The position numbers and the translations under genes are program-made. Below the pieces are notes generated by a model. The model saw nothing but the letters and a program-made list of their open reading frames with translations. It was not told the DNA's origin and did not search any database. DNA of 64,000 nucleotides from a virus (Duplodnaviria; Caudoviricetes), in IMG/VR virus record IMGVR_UViG_3300032053_000067, positions 1,085-65,084 of that record, one strand, 5' to 3'. The first letter of the stretch is position 1; each line of letters begins with the position of its first letter. This document shows, in pieces, positions 26,285 to 64,000 of this stretch.

Positions 26285-26659
26285 CTAATCCTTGATCCAC
26301 GCCCAATAGGCGTAGCCGCCCGCCGACATCTGCCGGTAGGTGTAGCCGGGCACGGCCACCGCATACTGCATGCCCTGCCAGCATTGCTTGGATCTCCGCC
26401 CGCTATCGGTCCACAGCGTGCGCGACAGATATGGGTGCCCATTGTGCGGAGCCGTCAGGCGCCACTCACAGGGCTTCATGAGCCCCATACCGCCGTAGAG
26501 CATTTCGTCCGGCAGCTTTTCTTTGCGCCGCGCCGCCGCGATCACGATGTGATCGGGGATGTAGATCGGGAGCGTGTAGCAGGCGATGTCGCCCGCCTGA
26601 TTGATGTCGTCCTGGGCTGGTGCTAGCTCTGTGGTAGCGATTACGTTGATCGTGATCAT
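26285..26659 (-). CDS. Hypothetical protein, first gene of inverted cassette
   Basis: GGAGGA SD; follows a strong promoter. Confidence 0.7.
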   Translation of the reverse strand: MITINVIATTELAPAQDDINQAGDIACYTLPIYIPDHIVIAAARRKEKLPDEMLYGGMGLMKPCEWRLTAPHNGHPYLSRTLWTDSGRRSKQCWQGMQYAVAVPGYTYRQMSAGGYAYWAWIKD

Positions 26660-26715
26660 TTCCGTCCTCCCTGCCCTCGCGGGCCGTTGTGCCAGGCTTT
26701 AAGTCCTATGTCTCT

Positions 26716-26744
26716 ATAGTACCACGTCGCCAAGTGTCTGTCAA
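26716..26744 (-). promoter_or_regulatory. Near-consensus sigma70 promoter driving the inverted cassette
   Basis: Minus strand TTGACA (26744-26739), 17 nt, TACTAT (26721-26716), with extended -10 TG. Confidence 0.78.
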
Positions 26745-26840
26745 GCATTATTTTTACCATGTTTTTTTGTTATTTTTTTTGACATTATTTCCAATTTTCA
26801 TAGTAGTTTAGATTAGTAGCCCTTAAAAAACTAATACGCG

Positions 26841-26900
26841 AGTGTCCACTCTTGTCTACTCTTGTCTACTCCTGTCCACTCTTGTCCAATAACGTCCATA
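26841..26900. repeat. 10-bp period tandem repeat upstream of portal
   Basis: agtgtccact cttgtctact cttgtctact cctgtccact cttgtccaat aacgtccata. Confidence 0.8.
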
Positions 26901-26976
26901 TGTACGTATTTACCTACGAAAGTCATTGACATTCGGCGCTTTGTATGGTAAACGTCGGGATAGACAGGGGTATTAT

Positions 26977-50710: not shown

Positions 50711-53700
50711 ATGGGACGATATCGGGATTTGATTGACCAGTTTGCGCCGGGTGGTGCGGCTACCGGATTGCCTGAAGGCGAGCCGGAAGACGTCATGGCC
50801 CCCCCCGCCCGCAGCCGGAGCGCCGCCTTGCTGGAAGTTTTCGACCCTGATAAGGCAACTGAGACGCTGACAGTGGCCATACCAGAACCGTCCGCCATGA
50901 CGGCACCGGTCCACAAACGGGCGGACTGGCGGGAAGGCTTCCACGGGGATCTGATGCGCAAAGGCGTACTGTCCGAAGAACAGGCAAAAAAAGGCGCTGA
51001 ACGGTACGAGGCGTGGACACGGCAACCCGAGGAGATCGGATATGCAGCCAGCCCCGGGGAGGGCGGCTTGGTAACGGCAGCCCGCTGGCTAAAGACGTAT
51101 CCTGGCAAGTTCCTTGGAAAAATCCAGTTGGACCGCGCCCGGAACATGACATTTGAGACGGTCCCCCAGTTGGACGTGATGGGCGACCGCGAAGTTGAAG
51201 ACAACCTGACCCGCATGATGGGTGTCGCGCCAGACCAAGAGTGGGAAAAAGAGATTACGTCAAAACTGCCAGAGTCTTGGGACTGGAAGAAAAAGCATAT
51301 GTTCGCCCAAGCAAATTGGATGACAAAAACGGCAGACGAGTACGCACAGTGGCGAGCCGGTCCGGAAGGTCCGAGTACAGCTACAAAAGCGCTTATTGGC
51401 GTTGCTCAGAATGCGCCGTTGATGCTGGAGATCGCCGCAGGCGGATTAGCGAAAAAAGCGGTGACCGGGACGGGTAAGTTGGTCGGGAAAGGTTTAGCAA
51501 AACGCGCGACGCGCGGCCTTATCCACGGCTCGGTATATTCGGCAATCGAAGGCCCGCGCCAGTTTGCGGACGTGCGGGCAAACAAGACAGAACTGGGGCC
51601 GGACGGGATAACGCGGATGGTGGAGCCGGGCGCGGGTGTCGGTGAGTCGCTACTCAAAGCAGGCATTTATGGCGTGTTGGAACCAGCTGTCGAGATCGCG
51701 GGCGGCGAGATGTTTGTCAAAAACGCCCTAAAACCGCTAGGAAAATATGCAGCGGTCAAAGGCCCCGGCTGGTTGGTAAACAAGGTGGCGCCGAGTCTTG
51801 CGCAGAGGGGCAAAGAGGCATTGGCAGGAATCGGCCTTGCGGTCTCAGATAAAGCGGGCTGGATGGCCCCGGCTGTACGCCAGTTCAACGAGATTACCGG
51901 GTTTCAAGGGATGGGGGTAGAAATCACGGAAGAGGCGTTGCAGGCGTTTTACGACGCGGTAGGCAACATCTCGAACAGTTACGACAAAGCCGGGTTGCAG
52001 AACGTCCCCGAGGCGGCGCAGGCGTTCAAAGACCAGTTTATCGAGATGGCGGGCACCTTGGCGCTGATGCGCGGGGGCGAGTACGGGATCAGCGCACCCG
52101 CCTACCTGAAGACGCGAGCCACTGTGGCGAAAAGCCTCGAGGGGTTCCGCGACATGGGGTACGACGTGCCGGACGCGGGTGTCGTGAAACGGTTGCCAAT
52201 GGACGACAAGATCGACATGCTCAACAACTTCCGGGACATCCACGGACTCCGATACTTCGGCAAAGAGGGGATTGGCTGGCACGACATACCGGCGGAAGAG
52301 ATGGCGGAGATGGACCCGCAGGAACGGGAATTGAAGTTGATGGAGATGAAAGCCGAGTGGTACAAAGGCCGGCTGCAACAGTTGGGGATGCAGCCAGATG
52401 AGGTCGAACAAGCGTTCCAGACCAAGACGGAACCTGAGTTGCAGGCGATGGTGACGGAACGCACGGTGGATGACCAGGTACGCCAGCTGGGTGTCGACCC
52501 GACCGGGTTTAAGCCGCGCGAGAAACGGGAGATGGTTGAGGCGGCATGGCGTCAGCAACTCGATGCCACCTTGGCGCCGTATGTGGACGAAACCGCGTTG
52601 CAGACAATGACGGAAGAGGAGAAGATGAACGCGGTGGCCGGCTCGATGGGCGCAGTTGCCAGCATCGGGCCGAAGCCGCAGGGCGAGTTCGAGGCGCCGT
52701 GGGCGGGCGGGGAAGACGCGATGGCGCCACCGGCAAGGCCGGGTGGAGTTGTAGGGCAAACTATACCGACAGAACAGCAAACGGTTGTGCCAATCGAGCG
52801 GGCCAATGCCCCCGTACAGCCTGTGGTTACGCCTACTGCGCCCACCGTTTTTGAACAGGGGACAGTCGCCCCTACAGCCGCACCTGTTGCGGGCGGGTTC
52901 AGCGATGAGGTGTCAGACACGTTGCGGGCGATCCCCCAAGGCGACCCGATCCATATGTCGGAGTTGGGGAAAGGCGCGAAACCCGCCGTCGAGGAATTGG
53001 AACGTCTGGGGTTGGTGGCCCGTGAAGCCACGGCCAAGGGGCGCCCGAAAGCTTTTGTCCGGCTGACGGAAGCCGGCGTGGCGGCGCAGGCAGAGGAAGT
53101 TGCGAGGAAGAAAGCCGGCCGCGTTGCACCCGTCGCACCGCCTACGCTGCCCCAGGAGACGCCAGCGGTTCCAGCGGGCAAAACCCCGACCCGGCCCGAG
53201 ATCGTTCAGCCCGCGCCAGCGGCGGCAGCACCTGCCCCCACAGCGCAGGCCAAGCCAAGAGTAACGCTCGCAAATGGAAACGTCGTAGACGTTCAGGCAG
53301 ACGACCCCGTTGTCAAGGCGGGCGTATTTGATTGGTATGCTGACGATTCGCCGCCGCACCTAGGGGGTGGCATTGCGCTTCCAAAAGGACACCCCGTACC
53401 TGAATTTAAATCTTACGATGATGCACAGTCGGCCATTGACGATTACACTGACATTCTGTCAAACAAGTACGGCGAAGACGCGGCAGTGCAGGCTCCGGTG
53501 TCCGTCGGAACGGGCGGATTTGCCGATCTGCCAGCGACACCTACGCCATTATCGTTGCCTGAAATAAGCAAACTCCGAAGCCTTTATGTTGCCAGAGACG
53601 CCATTGACGCCAGAGAAACAAAGGCGACGTTCCACAGTGTGTTATCTGATGTTGGCAGTTTTGAACCTCTTTCAGAAAAAGAGGTTAGAAAGGAACTGGC

Positions 53701-56700
53701 GAAACTCCAAGATGAAGGTAGGCTGGATCTCGCAATGGGCACAGAACCGAGATCACCAGACAGTCTTGTTGCCAAGATATACGAGTCACTGCACTGGAAA
53801 ACGGATGATACGTGGAACTCAAAAACCGACCCCGATCTAGACCTAACGTTTTACGAGGAGGCGTTGCGAGCCGAACAATACGGAGGATACGAACACGACC
53901 CCACACCAGAATTAAACCTTGCTCGCAGAATAGCGGCGGCTGCTACAGGGAATGTTCGTAGAAAAAGACTTCCAGGACCGCAACGCAGACTGACTCTTCA
54001 ACCCCAACCAACGGAGGTAACACCCAATGCCGTGCCACGGAAAGAAGCGCAAAAAGCCCCGCAAGTAGAACCGTTAGCCCCTTGGCTTAGAGAAGAAATG
54101 ATCCGCCAAGGGAAAAATCCTAACCGGCTTATGAACGACATCGACGTTGAGCAAAGCCGAGATCTGATCGCGCAAGACCCGATAGTGCAGTTCATCCAAC
54201 AAGCCCATCCAGAACTGGCAGAGAGGGCGTTGCGTGGCGATTTGAGCGTAGAGGAATATCGTAAGTATCAGCAAGAATCAGCGATACCCCTAACGGCCCC
54301 CCGGAAGGAGCCGACCACCCCCGCGGCGGAAGTAGAGACGAAAACTCGCAAAAAAGAGCCATGGGAGATGACGTCCAAAGAGTGGTCAGACCAAGTTGAT
54401 CGCATAGACGCACGTATCGAGCAAGCAAAGATCGCAGGCCAAATACCCTACCTGGAAGTTGCACGGAAACAGCCACAAGGACGAGTTGTGTATGAGGCGC
54501 ATGGTCTCGATGGAAAGTTGCTGGCTTCTGGTACGGCAAAGAGTTTGGGCGAAAAGCTTTACCGCAGAAAAGATAGGTACTGGAATGTCAGTGGTGGTTT
54601 TCTTCAATATGAGCAAAATGAGCCGTTTAGCGTCGAAGGTTATCGTGCGAAGTTGCGTGAAATAAACAAGAAACAGCACGGGGAATTTGTTGAACACGAC
54701 ATCAGAGAGGGGAAAACGCCCCCGCCCGAAGTACTGGCAGAGTACCCCGATCTAAAGCCGCAACCCGCAAAAGCAGAACCGGAAGCGAAACCAACCTCCG
54801 CCGCCAAACCCGCGCCCACCAAGTCCGTCACCGACACCATCTTCGACGTGATGACCAAGACGTTCGGCGGCAAGGCACAGTATCGGGCCGTCGCAACCAA
54901 AGACAAGTTGCCCGCCAAGGTGAAGGAGGCGGCCCGGGCGGAGTTGGAGAAACAAGGACTCAAGTGGGAAGACCAGCGGCTCCATGCGTTTTACCTGAAC
55001 GGGTCGGTGTGGTTCATCAAAGACCAGTTGGAAGCGGGTGCGGAAGCCGCCGGGATGACGCTGGAAGCGTTTGTGACGGCCAAGGCCATGCACGAGTACG
55101 GGTTGCACCTCGGCCTGCGCAAGATGATGGGCGAACTGTTCGGCCCCACGGCGCGCACCGAGATGGACCGGCTCTGCCGAAGCGTGACTGATAGTGTTGG
55201 GCGCGACAAGGTGTTGGCGGCGTTGCCGTCGACGTATGCCGGCTTTGACGACACCGCGTTGGGCCAAGAGTATCTGGCGAAACTGGCGGAGAAACTGGAC
55301 GCCGGGACGCTGACAGCCGAGGAAAAGACCGTGTGGGACCGGCTGGTCGAGTTTATCAAAAGCGTGCTGAAGAAAGCGCGGGGCACGTTGACGGATACGG
55401 ATATCGACCAGATCGTCCGCATGGCCGTGTCGCGGGCCAAGGCGAAGGGCGCAGTGGTCGAGGAAGAAGCGGTCGCGCAGACGCAGCCGGAAGTCACGCC
55501 CGCGCGAACGGCGCTGATCGATCGGTTGGTCGCGACGATGGAGGCGCGGCAACCGAAACACAAGATCGTGCCAAAATACGAATTGAAGGGTTCTGACGGA
55601 AAGTGGTATGGCGGGGATATGCCCGCGAAAGTAGATTACAGCGGTGAACGCCGCATTTCCGGGTATGTGTTTCAAGACAAAGACGGGACAAGGTTTGCTG
55701 CAAAGCATTATGCCACAGAGGCAGAAGCCCAAGCTGCAGTTGATCGGCGGCAGGAACGCGATGCCGAAGACTTCCGCAAGGCGATGGCGGAAAAGGACGA
55801 CGAGGGCCTTCAAGAGTCAGCGGATTACTGGCTTGGGAAAAAGGAAGCGACCGCGAAAACGCCGACCGTAGCGCCCACAAAGCCCCCAAAAGCGGCCACA
55901 ATGACGGGGAACGCAGAAGACGATGCGCGGCTGTTGCGTCTTCAGGAGAGGGCCAAGACGGGGCGGAGTATGACGGCAAGCGACGAGAAGTCGCTGAAAC
56001 TACTCGAGGATAAAGCCAAAGCTGATCCGGGGAAATGGACTTCGGGCGACGGCGTTGGCTATCGGGTTGACCGCCAGATTAACCGAGGATTCCAAGTCGT
56101 CCAGGTAGATACGGCAACAAAACTAGCGCTAATCCGGCAAGTGGCGGATACGGGGCTGACGAGCACTGGTGGCGACACGGACAGGATCAAGCCGGAGTGG
56201 ATTCACGTTGCGGATTTGGTACGGGACAAGAAATACGATGAGCCACCGGCTTCTCCCGCAGAAGTGACGTCGACGGCTACGAAAACGCCTGGAGGTGCGG
56301 TTCGCCTTGCGGAGATGGTATATGAGCGACTGAAGGCGGGCGAGTCGATTGGGGACGCCTATTTCTTCAAGATAGCCGATGAGGCGTATGGCGGGACGCG
56401 AGCGCAGGGGACATATGGCCCGAGCGATGCGTATGATGCAATGGAAGCGGGCTTAAACCGCTATTTGGCAGGGTACGGTATGGACCTGTCGCCCACGGGC
56501 GACTTAGAGAAGGTGAAAGAAGACATTGAGCGGATTCGTGGCGCGGTGCGAGCGGTACCCCGCCAGAAAAACCGGAGCGGGGAACGGAACGCATATCAGC
56601 AATTCAGCACACCCCCGGATTATTCGTACGCGGTGGCGTGGTTGGCGAACATCGGGCCAGGCGACGTGGTCTTGGAGCCAAGTGCGGGGACGGGGAACAT

Positions 56701-59700
56701 AGCCGTTCATGTTGCGGCAGCGGGCCCAGAGTCGGTTATTGCCAACGAATTGAGCGAACGGCGGGCAGAACTGCTTCGGGGCATTCCTGGCGTGACGGAG
56801 GTTTTGACAGAAGACGCCGAGCAGTTACACAACCTATTGCCGGAAGCCAGGCGCCCAACTGTAGTTGTGATGAACCCGCCGTTTAGCCGTGCGCCAACCC
56901 GCATGGGCGAGAAGAAAGTAATCGGGACCGACCTCAAGCATATAGGCGTGGCGTTAAAGATTTTACAGGATGGCGGCAGACTCGTGGCCGTGATTGGCGC
57001 GCCGTTGACCGTGGACGAAACAAAGACATTCCAGACATGGTATAATACTGTTAGCAAAAGATTTAACGTTCGCGCCGTGCAACGGGTAAGCCGGGACGTT
57101 TATACGTCACAGGGAACAAACTTCCCGACGCGAGTTGTCATAATAGACAAGACGGGTCCGACGCCGGCAGGCGGGACGATTGAGTCGAAGGAACTTGTAC
57201 TGCTGGCGCAGTTGGTAGAACGGTTGGAGGGAATCCGCAATGACCGTGTCCGAGTTGAACGACTTCGAACTGAGCAAGTTGTGCCTGGAGAAGTTGAAGG
57301 AGGTCGGGGAGAACCCGTCGCCGCACTGCCTGTACGCGCTCCAATTGCTAGCGTGGCTACTGGAGGAGCGGGCGGAGTTGGTGCAGTTGCCAGCGGCGAA
57401 GTTTCTGCCGGAACTCGAGGGGTTCGTGCAGAGCCACCTGGACGACGCGGGGACGTTTCCGCTGTTGCTGAGCAGCCAAGAGGAGGACCAGAGTCTGGAG
57501 GAGAAGGCGGAGGTCGAGGTGCAAGACCTAAAGGATCTGCCGGCGGAGTCGGTGGCGGAGCGGTTACTGGAGAACCTTCACGAAAACCTGTCGAAATTCA
57601 CCCCGAGTCTGCGGGAGTAGCTCGCACAGGTGCCCCTGAACAACTAACCGAAAGCGTGTTTGTTCCCTACAAACCATCGGTTAAGTTTCCCAAGAGCAAA
57701 CCCCACCCCGGCGAAGTCCGCGAATCAGCTACGATGTCTGCGGTGCATCCGCCCCCTCTAACCTACTCTCCGTTGCTTCCCGCAGAGGTTGTAGAAAAAG
57801 GGCTGTTGTCAGACGTCCAGTTAGAGCCAGTAGCTCGGGCTGGCGCTGCACACGAGAAAATGTTGCCTGCGCTGGAAAACAAGAGGGCGCAACGTCGTGG
57901 TTTTCTGCTTGGGGATGGCACCGGCGTTGGGAAGGGCCGGATCGTGGCCGGGGTGATTCTCGATAACTTCATGCGTGGACGGAAGAAGGCCGTCTGGCTC
58001 TCGATGTCGCAGAGGTTGTTTGAAGACGCGCAACGGGACTGGGCCGGGATAGGCCAAAACAAACGCAAACTTTTCAACCAAGGCAAGATCAATCTGGCTT
58101 CGGCAATCGCAGCCAACGATGGTATCCTGTTTACGACGTATGCGGTCTTACGATCTAAAGCGAAAGCAAAACAGACCGAAAAAGCCCGGACACGGCTGGA
58201 TCAGATAATCGACTGGCTTGGCGATGATTTTGACGGGGTTATCGTGTTTGATGAGGCACACGCGATGGCCAACGCCATGCCGTCCAAAGGGGACCGGGGC
58301 GTAAAGAATGCTTCTGGCCGCGCTTTGGCTGGCTTGGCGTTACAGAACCGGTTGCCTAACGCGCGGGTGATGTATGTCTCAGCAACAGCCGCGACGGAAG
58401 CGGAGAACTTGGCGTACATGGAACGGTTGGGTCTGTGGGGGCCCGGGATGCCATCTCCCAACAAACAGCATTTCTTGAACAAAGTGGGGAGCGGCGGTCT
58501 TGCCGCAATGGAGGTAGTCGCGCGCGATTTGAAAGCACAGGGATTGTCTATGGCGCGGAACCTCTCATATGATGATGTTGATTTCGACCGGATAGAACAC
58601 CCATTGACCCCGGATCAGCGGACCACTTACGACGCGCTGGCTCGTGCATGGCAAAAGGTGCTGCAGGACGTTAATGCCGCATTAGGAACAACCGACGCGG
58701 ACAAGAACGCTAAGGGCCGCGCCTTGGGCCAGTTTTGGGGCGCCCACCAACGGTTCTTCAACCAGATCATCACGGCAATGCAGGTGCCGTCCGTATTCAC
58801 TCGGATCGAGGCAGACATCCAAGCGGGACGGTCGGTGGTGGTGCAGTTGACAAATACGCACGAAGCAGCGCAAGAACGAGAGTTGGCGAAGCGGACGGAA
58901 GACGACGACTTAGAAGATTTTGACCTGACGCCGCGCGATATGTTGTTGCAGTACCTCGACAACTCTTTCCCGACACAGCAGTACGAGGAATACCTGGATG
59001 AAAACGGCGTCACGCAAACGCGGCCGGTACTCGATTCGCACGGGAACGCGCTGGAGAACCAAGAGGCGGTGAAGGCGAAAGAACGCCTCTTGCTCGAACT
59101 GGGATCAATCCAGGTGCCGCAAAGCCCGCTCGATATGCTCATTGACCATTTTGGGCGGCGCGCGGTTTCCGAAGTAACCGGCCGGAAACGGCGGGTGGTA
59201 AAGGACGAAGCGGGGAAGATGACGATCGAGGCCCGCGGCACCGGGGCGAACCACGCTGAAATAGCATCCTTTATGGCGGGCAAGAAGCGGATACTGATCT
59301 TCAGCGAGGCGGGCGGCATAGGCGCGAGCTATCACGCGGACCGGGCGAGTGCGAATCAGCAGCAACGCGCCCATTATGTCCTGCAGGCGGGATGGCGTGC
59401 GGACCGCGCAGTACAGGGCATGGGACGGAGCCACAGAAGCAACCAGGCGGCAGCGCCTATCTTTACGCTCGTAACGACCGATTTGAAGGGCCAGAAACGA
59501 TTTATCAGCACCATCGCGCGGCGACTGGAGCAGTTGGGCGCCCTGTCGAAAGGCCAGCGGCAAGCAGGGGCGACCGGTTTGTTTGGGCCAGAAGACAATC
59601 TGGAAAGCACAGAAGCGAAGGAAGCCCTTCTCACGTTCTATCGGGACTTATATGTGCAACGCATTCCTGAAATACAAATTGCTGACTTCGAGCAGGAAAT

Positions 59701-62700
59701 TGGAAAACGGTTGCGCGATAAAGACGGACGCTTACTGCAGACCCTGCCGCCGATTCGCCAGTTTCTAAACCGCCTCCTGTCTATGACGGTAGACCGCCAG
59801 AACCAAGTCTTTGACGAATTCGATACCCGGCTGAAAGAGCGAGTTCAGATTGCCTTGGCGGAAGGCACGCTCGACCAGGGGCTTGAAACGTATCGGGCGC
59901 ACAGCATCAAGAAGGCCGAGGAGCGAGTCGTCCACACGCAAGAAGAAACCCAGGCGCAGACAAAGTATGTGCGCGTAGCGGTGCAGCAACCAATTAAGCG
60001 GATGAGTTTCGCGACGGCGCAAAAGTTGGTGAAATCGAAAAAGGGCGGTTATTTCCGCAACAACGAATCAGGACGGCTCTATGCAGTGGTGCCCGGCCCC
60101 GACAAGACAACGGAAACCGGCAAGATTGAAAAACAGTACCGGCTTCACTCGCCCCGCGGAACCATCAGGACGATCCCCAATTACCAATTGCAAGGCCACA
60201 ATTGGGAGAGGGTCGGCACCGATTTTGACACTTACGAGTCGGAACCGGCGTGGACGGAAGAGTACAACAAAGCCCCGAAGTTTGACGAGTTCGAGGAACA
60301 CTTGATAACGGGCGTGGTCCTACCGATTTGGGATCGCATTACCGGGAACACGCGCATTGTCCGGATGTTGACGGACGACGGTGAGCAACTCCTGGGGCTT
60401 CTGCTCCCACCCGAAACGTACAAGGAGACGTTGAGGAACCTCCAAGTAGAAGTCGCCGGTCCGCAACTGACGCCAGTAGCGGCACTCGAGGGGATTGTCG
60501 AGGGAACGTTTAAGGTGGTGCTTGCTAACGGTTGGCAGGTAAAACGATCTTTTGTGGACAAGGAAGCGCGGGTAGAAGTGACAGGTGCAGACTGGGCTCA
60601 AAAACAGATGCTTGAGAACTTAGGTGCGTTTGTGGAGCAAATTGATTGGAAGACACGCTTATTCCTGCCTACGGGAGAGAAAGGGCGGGAACTCTTGGAG
60701 CGTGTCCTGGAAACGAGTCCAGTGGCCGATGTGGTGAAGTTTGGTCGAGGCAATGAATTTCAACCTTCCCTCGGTGCCCCCGGCCCGGAGTTCGCGCCGT
60801 CGCTGGGCGAGGCGTATGACAAGGCGAAAGAGTTTGCGTGGAAAATGGCGGAGAAGGCGGAGAAGAAGCTGACGAAAGAATCCGAGGCAAAGACGGTTGG
60901 CGCGGTGCGGTCGGAACTGGCGAAACGCGACAAAAACGCCAAGCCCGACATATCCCCGTGGCGGGTAGCGCTGGGGACGCCGTTGCGGAACCTTCGGAAG
61001 ACTTACGCCGGGAAAAAAATATGGGATGCGGCGTTCGGGCAGCCACAGGAACGTTATGAGATTCAGGATGCCTTCTTCGATCTGGATTATGAGACGGGGC
61101 AGAGTGCCGTCAAAAGGATGGTGAATTACACGCGGAAACACAAAAGGGAATATGCCGACCAGTGGGTGCCGCGATACTTGCAGCGAGATATGGATGCGCT
61201 GGGTTACAAGGCCAGGCAGGGGAAGACGGGGTGGGAAGTAATCGATCCTATGGGCAAGGTGGTGGAAACCTTTGCGCCGGGTGTTGACGAGGACGCGGCT
61301 TGGACGAATGCGTATTTGCGGACCCGGCAAGACGTGATCGAAGGCCGGAACTTTGTACTAACAGATGATGGCAAGATCCGCCAAGTGACAGTACCAAAGA
61401 TGTCGGAAGCAGCGGGCGATGCGCTACTGGACATGCGGTTGATTTTTCATCGGACCTGGGCACACCTGTCAGATGAAGCGAACATAGCGGAGAAGGTGTT
61501 GAAAGACGCCGGGGCCGAGATCCAGACCGTCAACTACGATGGCGAAGAGATCTCGGTGTTCGAGGCCATGCGGCAACTTGGCGATTTGCGCGGGTATTAC
61601 ATGCCGCGGTTGCGGGGTGTCGGGCGAAACGAATTACGCGCCAGGAAAGAAGGCGAAAACCCGTTTTACAAAAAGTACAACACCAGGACGGGCCGAAAAA
61701 TCGCTGGCTTCATGAAGGCAAGGTCCGGGTGGGACACCGAATACAGCCGGTCTTCGGAGTCCAGCGAAGAGGCGTTTGGCGATATCAGCCTGGTCGCCAT
61801 GAACGATGTCATGAAAAAGGCCCTTGAAGACACCGCCAAACACCAGAAAGAGGTGTCGCCGAAAAGCTTTGAAGCGCTCGGGCTTGAGACGGATACCATA
61901 CAGTACACGCGAAAAACGGACGGGGTGGTCGAGGATCATTTCGTTATCAAGGCCGACGACGGCAACAAGCGGTACAACGAACTGTGGAAATCGTTTCAGG
62001 GCGGACGGTGGAAAGACGGGTTTTGGCATTTCATAGCTTCGGAGAAGAACCCCGTCAGCGCCATCAAGCGGACGTTGCAACGCGCCGCAGTCAGCCAGAA
62101 TATGCAGCAGGTCGGCGCGGCGGACTTGTTTGGCCGCGCCCTTGCACAACAACTGGCGGTGATGATGCACGCACGAGGCAGCCGGGCGCGTAAGATCGGG
62201 CGTAACGAGGCAAAAGGCAAAGACGTATACGTCGGTTATGACCCGGATCCGGTGAGGGCCATGGTGGCGACCGCCAGTGCAATAGCCGGCGGCACGGCAA
62301 AGCGGCACATGGCACAAAAGATGTTGAACGCCGTGATGGGCGTCGAAATGCCGTGGAAAGACTTCCTGGCGAAGAACCTACCGGCCGACTTTGACAAGTT
62401 GTCCCACTCGGAACAGGTAGCCAAGCGGCATGAGATTTGGGAGCAGTACGAGGCGGGCAACAAAGAACGGCGGCTTGATTCTGGCCTACAAACCGAAGCT
62501 TACGATGACGCCGTATCGTATATCCGGGACCAGTTGCGGAACGACACGGCCATGGAACGGGTGTTCGGATGGATTCGCGGCTTGGCCTCGCAGTACTTTT
62601 TGACGGGCGTGGCGCCTGCCGTTATAAACCACACCACGATGGTGACGACAGTCCCCGCGATATTTCACCAGGAAGGCAAGATCCCGTTTGCCCGGACGTT

Positions 62701-64000
62701 CGCGCTCCTCGGCAAGATGGAACCGATCTACATCAAACACCGGATAGCCCAGCGGCGCGGCACCCCCGAATCTCTCGGCCCGGAAATGAAATGGTTGCTC
62801 ACCGAGATCTCGCGGCGGCGGTGGGACGACGCCCAGATGAACATCGAAGCGATGGAGGTCATGCTTTCGCAGTTCCGCGGGAAAGCCCGTCGCGTAATGG
62901 AAGTCAATATGATGCTGTTCGCCGTGGTTGAACAGGTCAACCGGGCCACGACGATCCTGATGGGATACCACGGGTTGAAAGAGCAGATCAAAGGCGATCT
63001 GACTGAGGAACAGCGGGAAGAATTACTGATGAAAGCCAAAGACCTGACAGACTTGGCGCACGCCAGTTATGGCAAAACCAATCTGCCATCCATTATGCGC
63101 GGCAGCAACCTCATTCCGCAGATCCTCCGAAACGCCTATCTTTACACGACATACAACCACAACCTCGTCCAAATGGCTATCAGCATGGGGTTTGGAAAGA
63201 ACCACGACCGAAAGGCGCTGACGTACCTGCTGGCGTCACACGCAATATTGGCCGGCCCTAAGGCGCTTGTCGGACTCGGACCCTTGTTGGTCTTGGCAAA
63301 GGGGATCATAGCGCTGGCGGGCGGAAACCCGCCGGAAGACCCCGAGGAGGCCTATTACAAGTGGGTCGAGGAGACGTTCGGCGAGTATGCGGAAGGCGTC
63401 GCCCGCGGTGGTGTGTTTGGGGCGCTGGGAATCGACGCCAGCGGCTCGATGGCCATGCGTGGGTTTGATATCCCCGTGACGTTCAACGAGATTCTGGGCG
63501 ACCCGATGGGCGCAAAACAGCGGATCTGGGCGTGGGCGGGTGAAACTGCGTTCGGCGGCCCCACTGGCGAACTGGTGTTGGGTAAAGCCGTTGGCGGTGC
63601 GGCGGACTTGGCACAGGGACGGTTTTCCCAGGCGGCGGAGAAACTGACGCCGCGTATGATATCCGCGCCGATCCGGGCGATCCGGGAATATAGGCATGGC
63701 GTCGAGACGGCCTACGGGACGCCGGTGTTTTACGGGAAAGAGCGGTTACGCCCGAGTTTCATGGCGGCCGTGTTACGCGGACTCACCTTCAATCCCATCG
63801 AGGTGTCCGGCAAACGTGCCGAACAGTGGAGCGACACGGAAACGCGCCGAAAGTATGAGGGCCAGCGGTCGGCCATCTATGACCAGATCGACCGGTGGGC
63901 GTCGGACAGCGGGCGGTACGCGGCGGATTGGGTAAACATCTTGGCCGAAGTGGACCACTACAACAACTATGTCAAGTCCAAGATGTTGCGGGTGCCACAG
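50711..64000 (+). CDS. Giant DarB-like polyvalent virion protein (>4,400 aa): metallopeptidase-like, N6-adenine MTase, Strawberry-notch-type SF2 helicase, large C-terminal domain; continues past window end
   Basis: Same frame from ATG 50711 at every point checked, and no closed ORF in this frame in the track. AMHEYGLH (~55085); QQFSTPP, VLEPSAGTG, VMNPPFS (56595-56890); FLLGDGTGVGKGR (57902); VFDEAH (~58245); QGMGRSHRSNQ (~59415). Confidence 0.88.
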   Translation, partial: MGRYRDLIDQFAPGGAATGLPEGEPEDVMAPPARSRSAALLEVFDPDKATETLTVAIPEPSAMTAPVHKRADWREGFHGDLMRKGVLSEEQAKKGAERYEAWTRQPEEIGYAASPGEGGLVTAARWLKTYPGKFLGKIQLDRARNMTFETVPQLDVMGDREVEDNLTRMMGVAPDQEWEKEITSKLPESWDWKKKHMFAQANWMTKTADEYAQWRAGPEGPSTATKALIGVAQNAPLMLEIAAGGLAKKAVTGTGKLVGKGLAKRATRGLIHGSVYSAIEGPRQFADVRANKTELGPDGITRMVEPGAGVGESLLKAGIYGVLEPAVEIAGGEMFVKNALKPLGKYAAVKGPGWLVNKVAPSLAQRGKEALAGIGLAVSDKAGWMAPAVRQFNEITGFQGMGVEITEEALQAFYDAVGNISNSYDKAGLQNVPEAAQAFKDQFIEMAGTLALMRGGEYGISAPAYLKTRATVAKSLEGFRDMGYDVPDAGVVKRLPMDDKIDMLNNFRDIHGLRYFGKEGIGWHDIPAEEMAEMDPQERELKLMEMKAEWYKGRLQQLGMQPDEVEQAFQTKTEPELQAMVTERTVDDQVRQLGVDPTGFKPREKREMVEAAWRQQLDATLAPYVDETALQTMTEEEKMNAVAGSMGAVASIGPKPQGEFEAPWAGGEDAMAPPARPGGVVGQTIPTEQQTVVPIERANAPVQPVVTPTAPTVFEQGTVAPTAAPVAGGFSDEVSDTLRAIPQGDPIHMSELGKGAKPAVEELERLGLVAREATAKGRPKAFVRLTEAGVAAQAEEVARKKAGRVAPVAPPTLPQETPAVPAGKTPTRPEIVQPAPAAAAPAPTAQAKPRVTLANGNVVDVQADDPVVKAGVFDWYADDSPPHLGGGIALPKGHPVPEFKSYDDAQSAIDDYTDILSNKYGEDAAVQAPVSVGTGGFADLPATPTPLSLPEISKLRSLYVARDAIDARETKATFHSVLSDVGSFEPLSEKEVRKELAKLQDEGRLDLAMGTEPRSPDSLVAKIYESLHWKTDDTWNSKTDPDLDLTFYEEALRAEQYGGYEHDPTPELNLARRIAAAATGNVRRKRLPGPQRRLTLQPQPTEVTPNAVPRKEAQKAPQVEPLAPWLREEMIRQGKNPNRLMNDIDVEQSRDLIAQDPIVQFIQQAHPELAERALRGDLSVEEYRKYQQESAIPLTAPRKEPTTPAAEVETKTRKKEPWEMTSKEWSDQVDRIDARIEQAKIAGQIPYLEVARKQPQGRVVYEAHGLDGKLLASGTAKSLGEKLYRRKDRYWNVSGGFLQYEQNEPFSVEGYRAKLREINKKQHGEFVEHDIREGKTPPPEVLAEYPDLKPQPAKAEPEAKPTSAAKPAPTKSVTDTIFDVMTKTFGGKAQYRAVATKDKLPAKVKEAARAELEKQGLKWEDQRLHAFYLNGSVWFIKDQLEAGAEAAGMTLEAFVTAKAMHEYGLHLGLRKMMGELFGPTARTEMDRLCRSVTDSVGRDKVLAALPSTYAGFDDTALGQEYLAKLAEKLDAGTLTAEEKTVWDRLVEFIKSVLKKARGTLTDTDIDQIVRMAVSRAKAKGAVVEEEAVAQTQPEVTPARTALIDRLVATMEARQPKHKIVPKYELKGSDGKWYGGDMPAKVDYSGERRISGYVFQDKDGTRFAAKHYATEAEAQAAVDRRQERDAEDFRKAMAEKDDEGLQESADYWLGKKEATAKTPTVAPTKPPKAATMTGNAEDDARLLRLQERAKTGRSMTASDEKSLKLLEDKAKADPGKWTSGDGVGYRVDRQINRGFQVVQVDTATKLALIRQVADTGLTSTGGDTDRIKPEWIHVADLVRDKKYDEPPASPAEVTSTATKTPGGAVRLAEMVYERLKAGESIGDAYFFKIADEAYGGTRAQGTYGPSDAYDAMEAGLNRYLAGYGMDLSPTGDLEKVKEDIERIRGAVRAVPRQKNRSGERNAYQQFSTPPDYSYAVAWLANIGPGDVVLEPSAGTGNIAVHVAAAGPESVIANELSERRAELLRGIPGVTEVLTEDAEQLHNLLPEARRPTVVVMNPPFSRAPTRMGEKKVIGTDLKHIGVALKILQDGGRLVAVIGAPLTVDETKTFQTWYNTVSKRFNVRAVQRVSRDVYTSQGTNFPTRVVIIDKTGPTPAGGTIESKELVLLAQLVERLEGIRNDRVRVERLRTEQVVPGEVEGGRGEPVAALPVRAPIASVATGGAGGVGAVASGEVSAGTRGVRAEPPGRRGDVSAVAEQPRGGPESGGEGGGRGARPKGSAGGVGGGAVTGEPSRKPVEIHPESAGVARTGAPEQLTESVFVPYKPSVKFPKSKPHPGEVRESATMSAVHPPPLTYSPLLPAEVVEKGLLSDVQLEPVARAGAAHEKMLPALENKRAQRRGFLLGDGTGVGKGRIVAGVILDNFMRGRKKAVWLSMSQRLFEDAQRDWAGIGQNKRKLFNQGKINLASAIAANDGILFTTYAVLRSKAKAKQTEKARTRLDQIIDWLGDDFDGVIVFDEAHAMANAMPSKGDRGVKNASGRALAGLALQNRLPNARVMYVSATAATEAENLAYMERLGLWGPGMPSPNKQHFLNKVGSGGLAAMEVVARDLKAQGLSMARNLSYDDVDFDRIEHPLTPDQRTTYDALARAWQKVLQDVNAALGTTDADKNAKGRALGQFWGAHQRFFNQIITAMQVPSVFTRIEADIQAGRSVVVQLTNTHEAAQERELAKRTEDDDLEDFDLTPRDMLLQYLDNSFPTQQYEEYLDENGVTQTRPVLDSHGNALENQEAVKAKERLLLELGSIQVPQSPLDMLIDHFGRRAVSEVTGRKRRVVKDEAGKMTIEARGTGANHAEIASFMAGKKRILIFSEAGGIGASYHADRASANQQQRAHYVLQAGWRADRAVQGMGRSHRSNQAAAPIFTLVTTDLKGQKRFISTIARRLEQLGALSKGQRQAGATGLFGPEDNLESTEAKEALLTFYRDLYVQRIPEIQIADFEQEIGKRLRDKDGRLLQTLPPIRQFLNRLLSMTVDRQNQVFDEFDTRLKERVQIALAEGTLDQGLETYRAHSIKKAEERVVHTQEETQAQTKYVRVAVQQPIKRMSFATAQKLVKSKKGGYFRNNESGRLYAVVPGPDKTTETGKIEKQYRLHSPRGTIRTIPNYQLQGHNWERVGTDFDTYESEPAWTEEYNKAPKFDEFEEHLITGVVLPIWDRITGNTRIVRMLTDDGEQLLGLLLPPETYKETLRNLQVEVAGPQLTPVAALEGIVEGTFKVVLANGWQVKRSFVDKEARVEVTGADWAQKQMLENLGAFVEQIDWKTRLFLPTGEKGRELLERVLETSPVADVVKFGRGNEFQPSLGAPGPEFAPSLGEAYDKAKEFAWKMAEKAEKKLTKESEAKTVGAVRSELAKRDKNAKPDISPWRVALGTPLRNLRKTYAGKKIWDAAFGQPQERYEIQDAFFDLDYETGQSAVKRMVNYTRKHKREYADQWVPRYLQRDMDALGYKARQGKTGWEVIDPMGKVVETFAPGVDEDAAWTNAYLRTRQDVIEGRNFVLTDDGKIRQVTVPKMSEAAGDALLDMRLIFHRTWAHLSDEANIAEKVLKDAGAEIQTVNYDGEEISVFEAMRQLGDLRGYYMPRLRGVGRNELRARKEGENPFYKKYNTRTGRKIAGFMKARSGWDTEYSRSSESSEEAFGDISLVAMNDVMKKALEDTAKHQKEVSPKSFEALGLETDTIQYTRKTDGVVEDHFVIKADDGNKRYNELWKSFQGGRWKDGFWHFIASEKNPVSAIKRTLQRAAVSQNMQQVGAADLFGRALAQQLAVMMHARGSRARKIGRNEAKGKDVYVGYDPDPVRAMVATASAIAGGTAKRHMAQKMLNAVMGVEMPWKDFLAKNLPADFDKLSHSEQVAKRHEIWEQYEAGNKERRLDSGLQTEAYDDAVSYIRDQLRNDTAMERVFGWIRGLASQYFLTGVAPAVINHTTMVTTVPAIFHQEGKIPFARTFALLGKMEPIYIKHRIAQRRGTPESLGPEMKWLLTEISRRRWDDAQMNIEAMEVMLSQFRGKARRVMEVNMMLFAVVEQVNRATTILMGYHGLKEQIKGDLTEEQREELLMKAKDLTDLAHASYGKTNLPSIMRGSNLIPQILRNAYLYTTYNHNLVQMAISMGFGKNHDRKALTYLLASHAILAGPKALVGLGPLLVLAKGIIALAGGNPPEDPEEAYYKWVEETFGEYAEGVARGGVFGALGIDASGSMAMRGFDIPVTFNEILGDPMGAKQRIWAWAGETAFGGPTGELVLGKAVGGAADLAQGRFSQAAEKLTPRMISAPIRAIREYRHGVETAYGTPVFYGKERLRPSFMAAVLRGLTFNPIEVSGKRAEQWSDTETRRKYEGQRSAIYDQIDRWASDSGRYAADWVNILAEVDHYNNYVKSKMLRVPQ
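57240..57620 (+). CDS. Nested out-of-frame gene (126 aa, acidic helical) inside the giant protein gene
   Basis: GGAGG at 57226-57230 before ATG; protein-like Leu/Glu periodicity with CTG/GAG codons, while the host frame becomes a G/R/A/P-rich linker over the same interval. Confidence 0.65.
   Translation: MTVSELNDFELSKLCLEKLKEVGENPSPHCLYALQLLAWLLEERAELVQLPAAKFLPELEGFVQSHLDDAGTFPLLLSSQEEDQSLEEKAEVEVQDLKDLPAESVAERLLENLHENLSKFTPSLRE

Follow-up and report, generated by a model that had tools for sequence, protein, structure and literature searches.

A probable gene nested out of frame in the methyltransferase-helicase linker of a giant phage protein

Here we describe an open reading frame (ORF) of 126 codons that lies wholly within the gene of a giant phage protein and out of frame with it, in the stretch that joins the methyltransferase (MTase) domain of that protein to its helicase domain. 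The ORF occupies positions 57240-57620 (+ strand) of the window, by which we mean the 64,000 bases analyzed here (bases 1085-65084 of the 65,084-base IMG/VR virus record IMGVR_UViG_3300032053_000067). Judged from its sequence relatives, the phase of their substitutions and the predicted fold of its product, it is very probably a genuine second protein-coding gene, real and translated. The product, P0001, is predicted to be a compact, acidic protein of seven helices, and sequence comparison places its family at the same position in most relatives of the giant protein that have a long linker, across many phyla.

Position and start signals of the nested reading frame

The features of the giant gene (hereafter the host gene) that frame the nested ORF are listed below in window coordinates.

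50711-64000, + strand: giant polyvalent-protein ORF (host gene), 3' open at the end of both window and contig, 4429 amino acids (aa) read
56504-57154, + strand: N6-adenine DNA MTase domain of the host protein, residues ~1932-2148, matching PHROG methyltransferase families
57224-57247, + strand: host motif L-E-G-I-R-N-D-R, whose codons also give the nested Shine-Dalgarno (SD) sequence (GAG GGA) and the nested start (AAT GAC, read as ATG)
57226-57230, + strand: GGAGG SD sequence of the nested gene, 9 nucleotides before the ATG
57239-57640, + strand: host-frame linker, residues ~2177-2310, without predicted structure, kept open, protein sequence not conserved
57240-57620, + strand: nested +1-frame gene of 126 aa (product P0001), ATG start, TAG stop at 57618-57620, product acidic and all-helical by prediction
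57701-58636, + strand: N-terminal helicase lobe of the host protein, Pfam AAA_34, residues 2331-2642, E = 2.6e-112
59126-59890, + strand: C-terminal helicase lobe of the host protein, Pfam Helicase_C_4 (strawberry-notch type), residues 2806-3060, E = 1.5e-87

By its sequence, the giant protein falls among the polyvalent proteins that carry an MTase-helicase dyad of the strawberry-notch type. Among the candidates scored it has 1029 homologues at E ≤ 0.001, the closest being 49-50% identical. Both anchors that flank the linker were present in all 119 host-protein homologues retrieved (119/119), and the linker itself was of low complexity and 120-272 aa long in every one of the 60 homologues whose linkers were inspected. 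The NPPF motif of the host MTase is invariant in the two alignments examined for it (A3 and A5).

The nested ORF is in the +1 frame relative to the giant ORF and corresponds to host residues ~2177-2303, that is, to the gap between the two enzymatic domains: the MTase PHROG matches end near residue 2148, and the nested ORF stops 27 codons before AAA_34 begins at residue 2331. Its frame is closed upstream by a TAG at 57216-57218, 7 codons before the nested ATG. Read in the host frame, the same DNA gives a stretch rich in G, R, P, A and V. The G+C content at host codon positions 1/2/3 is 0.85/0.66/0.30 within the nested ORF, against 0.64/0.44/0.66 for the whole giant gene, so that the usual codon-position pattern appears shifted into the nested frame, with values of 0.85 at its third position (GC3) and 0.30 at its second (GC2). 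An initial annotation, made by a model from the letters of this DNA, had pointed out a 126-codon out-of-frame ORF with a well-spaced GGAGG and GC3-type codons, beginning at the end of the MTase and stopping short of the helicase, and all of these features were recovered here.

Homologues of the nested product

An exhaustive phmmer search with P0001 through 1.84 billion representative proteins yielded 18 matches at E ≤ 0.001. Sixteen of them are proteins of 117-146 aa that align with P0001 from end to end (best E = 3.5e-13); the other two, P0136 and P0137, are long proteins matched over short stretches and were excluded from the alignments. The 16 homologues are not of low complexity and share motifs such as LNxNPLNQ and LYSLQLAxWxLE. 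All are metagenomic, and all are either unnamed or called 'hypothetical protein'. A hidden Markov model (HMM) built from these 16 sequences, with P0001 left out, gave the window ORF 114.4 bits. Full-length homologues at this level, and such a score against a model that had not seen P0001, both speak against an ORF that is open by chance.

The genomic setting of the family was seen in a metagenome scan with the homologue P0130, which returned three loci, two of them distinct, each carrying the homologue nested in the same linker and in the same +1 frame. In L004, it lies in the +1 frame of a 3159-aa, 3'-open ORF with MTS, AAA_34 and Helicase_C_4 domains, beginning at the end of the MTase and stopping before the helicase. 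L005 has the same arrangement, and the displayed sequences of L004 and L005 are identical. L003 is a contig of 1.2 kb, in which the homologue occupies the +1 frame of an open frame that crosses the MTase-helicase linker.

Other searches gave nothing. Neither tblastn of P0001, a comparison that the initial annotation had proposed, nor blastn of the nested region found a match in 50,697 phage records. Viral contigs scanned with the small-family alignment A2 gave 73 pattern matches, none of which was confirmed, and a metagenome scan with P0123 led to no confirmed locus.

Survey of related loci

We surveyed related loci that were chosen by alignment of the host-protein flanks, blind to the nested ORF, from 80 viral contigs and 80 bacterial-genome contigs, with four named plasmids added; 1.5 kb of flank was covered. 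The set comprised 168 loci, of which 115 had both anchors and 112 had them in one frame. Left out of the counts were thus the 53 of 168 loci without one or both anchors and the 3 of 115 with anchors in different frames. The linker measured at least 100 aa in 86 of the 112 loci and was short (51-86 aa) in the remaining 26.

Open +1 frames are the rule in the long linkers. Where the linker is 100-170 aa long (n = 79 loci), the +1 frame contains a single stop in 56 loci, two in 19 and three in 4, while the +2 frame contains 2-26 stops with a median of 9. A +1 ATG lies within 3 codons of the junction at the MTase end in 80 of the 86 long-linker loci, and it is always formed by a host AAT (60 loci), GAT (16) or CAT (4) followed by a codon starting with G. 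From the usage of Asn, Asp and His codons in the flanks, 36.1 such loci would be expected rather than 80, an excess that a chance frame does not account for. An SD-like motif is present in 65 of the 80 loci having the junction ATG. The ORFs that start there span 87-155 codons (median 120.5), end 2-31 codons before the helicase anchor and contain no +1-frame stop before their ends in any of the 80 cases, against a per-locus null probability of 0.14-0.31 for an open frame. The initial annotation had asked whether homologous linkers keep an open alternative frame with an SD, and in most long linkers they do. Of the products, 57/86 matched the independent HMM at E < 1e-3 and 74/86 were joined by jackhmmer starting from P0001.

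The start signals are written into a host motif, L-E-G-(I/V)-R-N-D-R, that usually precedes the linker across the 119 host-protein homologues and is the most conserved stretch at the MTase end of their alignment. Across the family, GAG GGN in this motif gives the SD sequence, and AAT GAY, or a GAT or CAT variant before a codon starting with G, gives the +1 ATG. Substitutions at the N-D of R-N-D-R (N-A, D-A, Y-A, H-D) are chemically odd for a protein, yet all of them preserve xAT-G; part of this apparent protein motif may therefore be a nucleotide signal. We infer that ribosomes start internally on the mRNA of the giant gene at this SD and ATG, in which case the small protein would be made together with the giant one.

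The same region bears on another way of reaching the nested frame: ribosomes could be programmed to shift by +1 or -2 as they approach the end of the MTase, which would yield a truncated MTase fused to the helical domain, an isoform without the helicase. The nested frame does begin exactly at the domain boundary, and 9 of the 80 loci have no +1 stop until more than 25 codons before the ATG. Among transferred plasmid proteins, genes that also yield a shorter isoform are known, as with the in-frame TraC1 and TraC2 of RP4. A table of PMC7314908 includes both of these proteins. In 71 of the 80 loci, however, a stop closes the +1 frame 1-22 codons ahead of the ATG, and in 20 of them the distance is exactly one codon; this leaves little or no room to shift and makes any entry into the frame other than by initiation implausible. 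Codon usage, moreover, predicts less conservation than the ATG and the SD-like motif show. Taken together, these observations make a frameshift very unlikely, and internal initiation of a separate gene remains our preferred reading.

All 76 matches to the family HMM in the 168 loci were located in the MTase-helicase linker, and none stood alone. The family occurs in both the phage and the conjugative-plasmid versions of the dyad, and the record titles of the survey loci include Gammaproteobacteria, Clostridia, Verrucomicrobiae, Bacteroidetes and others. An assembly error or compensating indels in the host gene were considered and rejected, because the same arrangement recurs in independent assemblies. 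In all four plasmid records that carry a nested homologue it is unannotated as a separate gene, the record giving only the annotation of the giant gene or none. In keeping with this, the earlier description of an overprinted gene that gene callers would miss was upheld by homology, selection phase and predicted fold as well as by these records. One of these plasmids is MEALZ_p of Methylotuvimicrobium alcaliphilum 20Z, whose nested homologue lies at NC_016108.1 105156-105497 on the minus strand. In another, Thioflavicoccus mobilis pTHIMO01 (L006; NC_019941.1 16581-21479), both anchors share a single open frame and a nested-family ORF occurs, yet the region of the MTase-helicase match is empty in the gene table of PLSDB, which may have omitted the giant gene or treated it as a pseudogene.

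The linkers also vary in length. In seven loci (L041, L042, L049, L050, L055, L118 and L120) the linker reaches 226-395 aa, and the nested ORF stays at 109-123 codons. The extension is an extra in-frame, folded-looking host segment after the nested ORF, with many +1 stops; P0021, P0052 and P0053 are examples of an extended linker at the protein level. The short-linker class (26 loci, including L008, L009 and L125-L150) comes mostly from alphaproteobacterial plasmids and genomes and has a different junction motif, like LLxWIxxxVPPR.

Selection in the overlap

We tallied mismatches by host codon position in blastn alignments of 121 pairs drawn from 29 loci. In the nested frame, host positions 1 and 3 become the third and second codon positions, respectively. 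The mismatch fractions were as follows.

Upstream MTase: host positions 1/2/3 = 0.184/0.103/0.534
Nested segment: host positions 1/2/3 = 0.435/0.261/0.188
Downstream helicase: host positions 1/2/3 = 0.141/0.077/0.524

The mismatch peak thus moves to host position 1 in the overlap, which places the signature of purifying selection in the nested frame. Host position 1 was more variable than host position 3 within the nested segment in 15 of 15 locus-disjoint pairs (binomial p = 6e-5), and this lowest variability at the nested second codon position is not what a meaningless open frame would give. The close pairs used for this test share 65-93% nucleotide identity. Constrained positions of the nested protein evolve roughly twice as fast as those of the flanking domains. 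Purifying selection on the nested frame, for which the initial annotation had proposed a check, is thereby seen among relatives of the window.

For the window itself, we scored the overlap with HMMs made from the same nucleotides of 72 other loci read in each frame. The nested-frame model gave 47.1 bits, the host-frame model 12.1 bits (with a bias of 31.6) and the +2-frame model 1.6 bits.

The host frame is likewise kept open: its linker contains no stop in any of the 112 loci (112/112), whereas, when the synonymous codons of the nested ORF are permuted, the host frame stays open in only ~30% of cases per locus and in 12% for the window. This contrast indicates that the giant protein is read through and that the overlap is a case of true dual coding. 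In the overlap, purifying selection acts on the nested frame, and the host reading is merely kept open and of low complexity.

These data also address the idea that the small frame is a relic, left when an ancestral MTase gene, a small gene and a helicase gene were fused by read-through, and now decaying and unexpressed. Such a history would fit the position of the frame, which falls precisely at the border of two domains that may originally have had genes of their own, and the short-linker relatives do lack a nested-frame product. Decay is difficult to reconcile with selection that is ongoing among the close pairs, with a frame that is intact in all 80 loci having the ATG and with start signals that are maintained; furthermore, no split arrangement was present among the loci, and the host frame is open in all 112 that have both anchors in one frame. 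We consider a relic highly improbable and retain the reading of a working nested gene.

Predicted fold and database comparisons

AlphaFold2, given an alignment of 83 rows, predicted the nested protein as seven helices with a mean predicted local distance difference test (pLDDT) of 94.9 and a predicted template modeling score (pTM) of 0.89. Translated in the host frame, this DNA gave a pLDDT of 64.0, a pTM of 0.15 and no secondary structure; the alignment for that run had 55 rows, taken from the same loci. Loci L006-L009 were excluded from the alignments used for folding. The difference between the two frames argues against a chance ORF, and together with the mismatch phase it agrees with the initial description of the host frame as a passive G/R/P linker. 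P0001 has an isoelectric point (pI) of 4.37 and a net charge of -17, which, with the predicted fold, agrees for the window with the acidic, helical product foreseen from the sequence.

No known family or structure could be assigned to the nested protein. Foldseek against the PDB gave no significant match (best E = 0.48), VIA-align against 48,161 chains reached a best Z of 4.2 with no chain at Z ≥ 5, and the best match in BFVD had an E of 0.36. In a Pfam comparison of 83 nested-family members, 10 families were hit, each by one member only and at E = 7e-4 or weaker; a single member matched PHROGs (E = 0.004), and the A4 profile of the family found nothing better than E = 0.21 among PDB sequences. 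The ESM Atlas returned only HEAT-like helical fragments (recognition 1597 against a mark of 2300), which we take as no lead. By these sequence and structure comparisons, the product belongs to a new family without a Pfam, PHROG or PDB relative.

Weight of the evidence for a nested gene

A nested ORF could also be open by chance, with no protein made. A linker rich in G, R, P and A has few T at codon position 2, which leaves its +1 frame poor in stops and gives the translation an acidic, helical look; shuffles that keep the host protein unchanged leave the +1 frame without a stop in 14-31% of cases on average, and at some loci in as many as 50%. The high GC3 of the +1 frame follows in part from host codons that start with G and C, and the same giant gene contains another alternative-frame ORF of 120 aa. 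In the window, again with an unchanged host protein, permuting synonymous codons within the linker left the nested frame without a stop in 4% of trials, and resampling from the codon usage of the flanks did so in 1.3%.

Several of these points, and others from the survey, weigh against a nested gene. At any one locus, the absence of +1 stops is improbable to a modest degree only (for the window P = 0.04 and 0.013, at some loci up to 0.5), and the length of the ORF by itself is unremarkable, given that another + strand alternative-frame ORF of the giant gene comes within a few codons of it. The window has no close relative (its nearest host-protein homologue is the one at 49-50% identity), so the substitution-phase test rests on other members of the family, while the evidence of the window itself consists of homology, fold and composition. 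The junction ATG is absent in 6 of the 86 long-linker loci, and 12 of the 86 products were not joined by jackhmmer. In addition, the loci are phylogenetically related, so that counts such as 80/86 do not represent independent events, and several are near-duplicates (79 distinct open pieces among 86). Finally, the nested family had no match in any of the 26 short-linker loci within the 1.5-kb flanks; the dyad can hence work without the nested gene, or with a partner encoded beyond these flanks.

Nevertheless, homology, selection phase and fold place the nested ORF well beyond chance. With the recurrent junction ATG added, we regard a chance frame as exceedingly improbable.

Possible roles of the nested protein

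All matches to the family in the 168 loci are confined to one linker, and from this we infer a partnership with the dyad. By analogy with known nested genes, we tentatively suggest that the nested protein is a cis-encoded working partner of the MTase-helicase dyad of its host protein, a possibility rather than an expectation; it would act with the dyad as a chaperone, stabilizer or inhibitor in the producing cell. A complex prediction with the MTase (residues 1900-2176), the N-terminal helicase lobe (residues 2311-2660) and the nested protein, run without controls, scored 0.00 against a mark of 0.32, a score to which we attach no weight in either direction. More doubtful is a stronger form of the proposal, in which coding for a second subunit would be the main reason for the linker of the dyad; the nested protein would then be an obligate regulatory partner, encoded in cis, of an injected or transferred enzyme, either as a chaperone or as an auto-inhibitor released on delivery. 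If it were true, the antirestriction dyad that is widespread among phage polyvalent proteins and conjugative elements would be a two-protein machine of which one half has never been annotated.

The main functional rival to a partner of the dyad is an independent anti-defense role, in which a real nested gene merely shares the mRNA and its product acts on the host cell, for example as an acidic effector that mimics DNA or inhibits a restriction enzyme or another defense enzyme. Small acidic, helical antirestriction proteins such as Ocr exist. P0001 is strongly acidic, as noted above, 55 of the 83 family members have a pI below 5, and the class of the host gene is tied to antirestriction in the main text of PMC5512222. 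Acidity is not universal in the family, however: the median net charge is -8, and the pI exceeds 7 in 4/83 members. No solved DNA-mimic chain appeared among the Foldseek and VIA-align matches of the nested protein, although a missing match does not exclude the fold. Moreover, an effector of this kind would be expected to occur somewhere as a separate gene, but 76 of 76 HMM matches are nested in the one linker. We therefore judge an independent effector unlikely and keep the partner of the dyad as our working model.

Other features of the giant gene

The giant gene contains seven more + strand alternative-frame ORFs, of 82-120 aa, none of which has a Pfam match, TnpV included.

52546-52854, + strand: alternative-frame ORF in the giant gene
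52785-53066, + strand: alternative-frame ORF in the giant gene
53586-53840, + strand: alternative-frame ORF in the giant gene
55333-55596, + strand: alternative-frame ORF in the giant gene
56638-56886, + strand: alternative-frame ORF in the giant gene
59392-59670, + strand: alternative-frame ORF in the giant gene
62569-62931, + strand: alternative-frame ORF in the giant gene

P0003, a database protein nearly identical to the giant one, has 4481 aa and is encoded on a 65,014-base contig, which makes it 52 aa longer than the giant ORF read in the window. The two proteins are identical at the N-terminus, and a few C-terminal residues differ (window 63800-64000). A second, near-identical assembly of this phage therefore exists.

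Implications

To our knowledge, bacteria and their phages offer few same-strand embedded genes that are backed by strong evolutionary evidence, and annotation pipelines do not allow such genes. The nested gene described here appears conserved across distant lineages, lies within a protein class that is believed to travel with DNA, by injection or transfer, and so to defeat restriction, and encodes a family outside every Pfam and PHROG family. In practice, anyone expressing a giant dyad gene would probably co-express an unnoticed 14-kDa protein, and recoding the gene would silently delete that protein. On the other hand, a change that is synonymous for the host protein can remove the nested start, which offers a clean genetic handle. 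More generally, a seemingly neutral low-complexity linker can be the shadow of another gene, with consequences for how disordered regions and ratios of nonsynonymous to synonymous substitution (dN/dS) are read.

Comparison with known systems

The host protein agrees with the MTase-helicase dyad of Iyer et al. 2017 (PMC5512222), in which an N6-adenine MTase is fused N-terminal to a superfamily 2 helicase in a giant phage protein. The main text of that paper does not describe the nested gene, and the words 'overlapping', 'linker' and 'frameshift' have 0 occurrences in it.

The initial annotation had called the giant protein DarB-like. This holds for the architecture only, as P1 DarB shows no sequence similarity to its MTase-helicase core: BLASTP of host residues 1881-3100 against P1 DarB gave a best E of 0.51, and DarB carries SNF2-rel_dom and Helicase_C rather than AAA_34 and Helicase_C_4. 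Consistently, P1 was not returned when the MTase-helicase core was compared by tblastn with the 50,697 phage records, and no member of the nested family was found in P1 darB. The accompanying appeal to the small accessory proteins of P1 loses most of its force, P1 DarB being unrelated in sequence and without a nested-family member. Two alternative-frame ORFs of P1 darB (177 and 128 codons) were considered as analogues and rejected, because their translations are rich in R, S, T, C and W, are not protein-like and lack a family match. The P1 record (L170, AF234172) does annotate a gene, iddB, at 26577-26975 within ddrB of the dar operon, but on the other strand; such antisense nesting differs in kind, and it occurs in the phage whose DarB is the archetype of the dyad.

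In the published literature on embedded and overlapping phage and plasmid genes, with supplements outside the scope, we found no description of the nested gene. Precedents for its arrangement exist. As the main text of bioRxiv 10.64898/2025.12.20.695498 describes, Rz1 is embedded in the +1 frame of lambda Rz, and both products are functional. As here, a same-strand gene lies wholly inside a phage gene in the +1 frame. Rz1, however, is a proline-rich lipoprotein for outer-membrane disruption at lysis, whereas the nested product in our case is folded, cytoplasmic-looking and helical by prediction, and the unstructured reading is that of the host.

The same paper reports long out-of-frame internal genes of Synechocystis 6803 (slr0489S, slr1079S and slr1082S), for which both readings are translated and the products interact. 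They provide a precedent for a nested product that binds its host product, but they belong to another gene family ('methyltransferase' and 'helicase' have 0 occurrences in the main text), and they are experimentally proven, unlike the present gene, which is known from its sequence and predicted fold.

Another close likeness in description is traH in traI of the IncP plasmid RP4. According to PMC7314908, which cites Pansegrau et al. 1990, TraH, an acidic protein read from traI in a different frame, stabilizes the TraI-TraJ complex at oriT. In both cases, the gene of a large DNA-processing enzyme, carried by a mobile element, also encodes a small acidic protein out of frame, and the two are likened by this description, not by sequence or fold. 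The host gene encodes a relaxase in RP4 and an MTase-helicase here; in our case, the overlap coincides with a disordered inter-domain linker, and binding to the host protein is only proposed. In summary, same-strand embedded genes are a known kind, exemplified by Rz1 in Rz and traH in traI; the nested gene is one of this kind, and its family is new.

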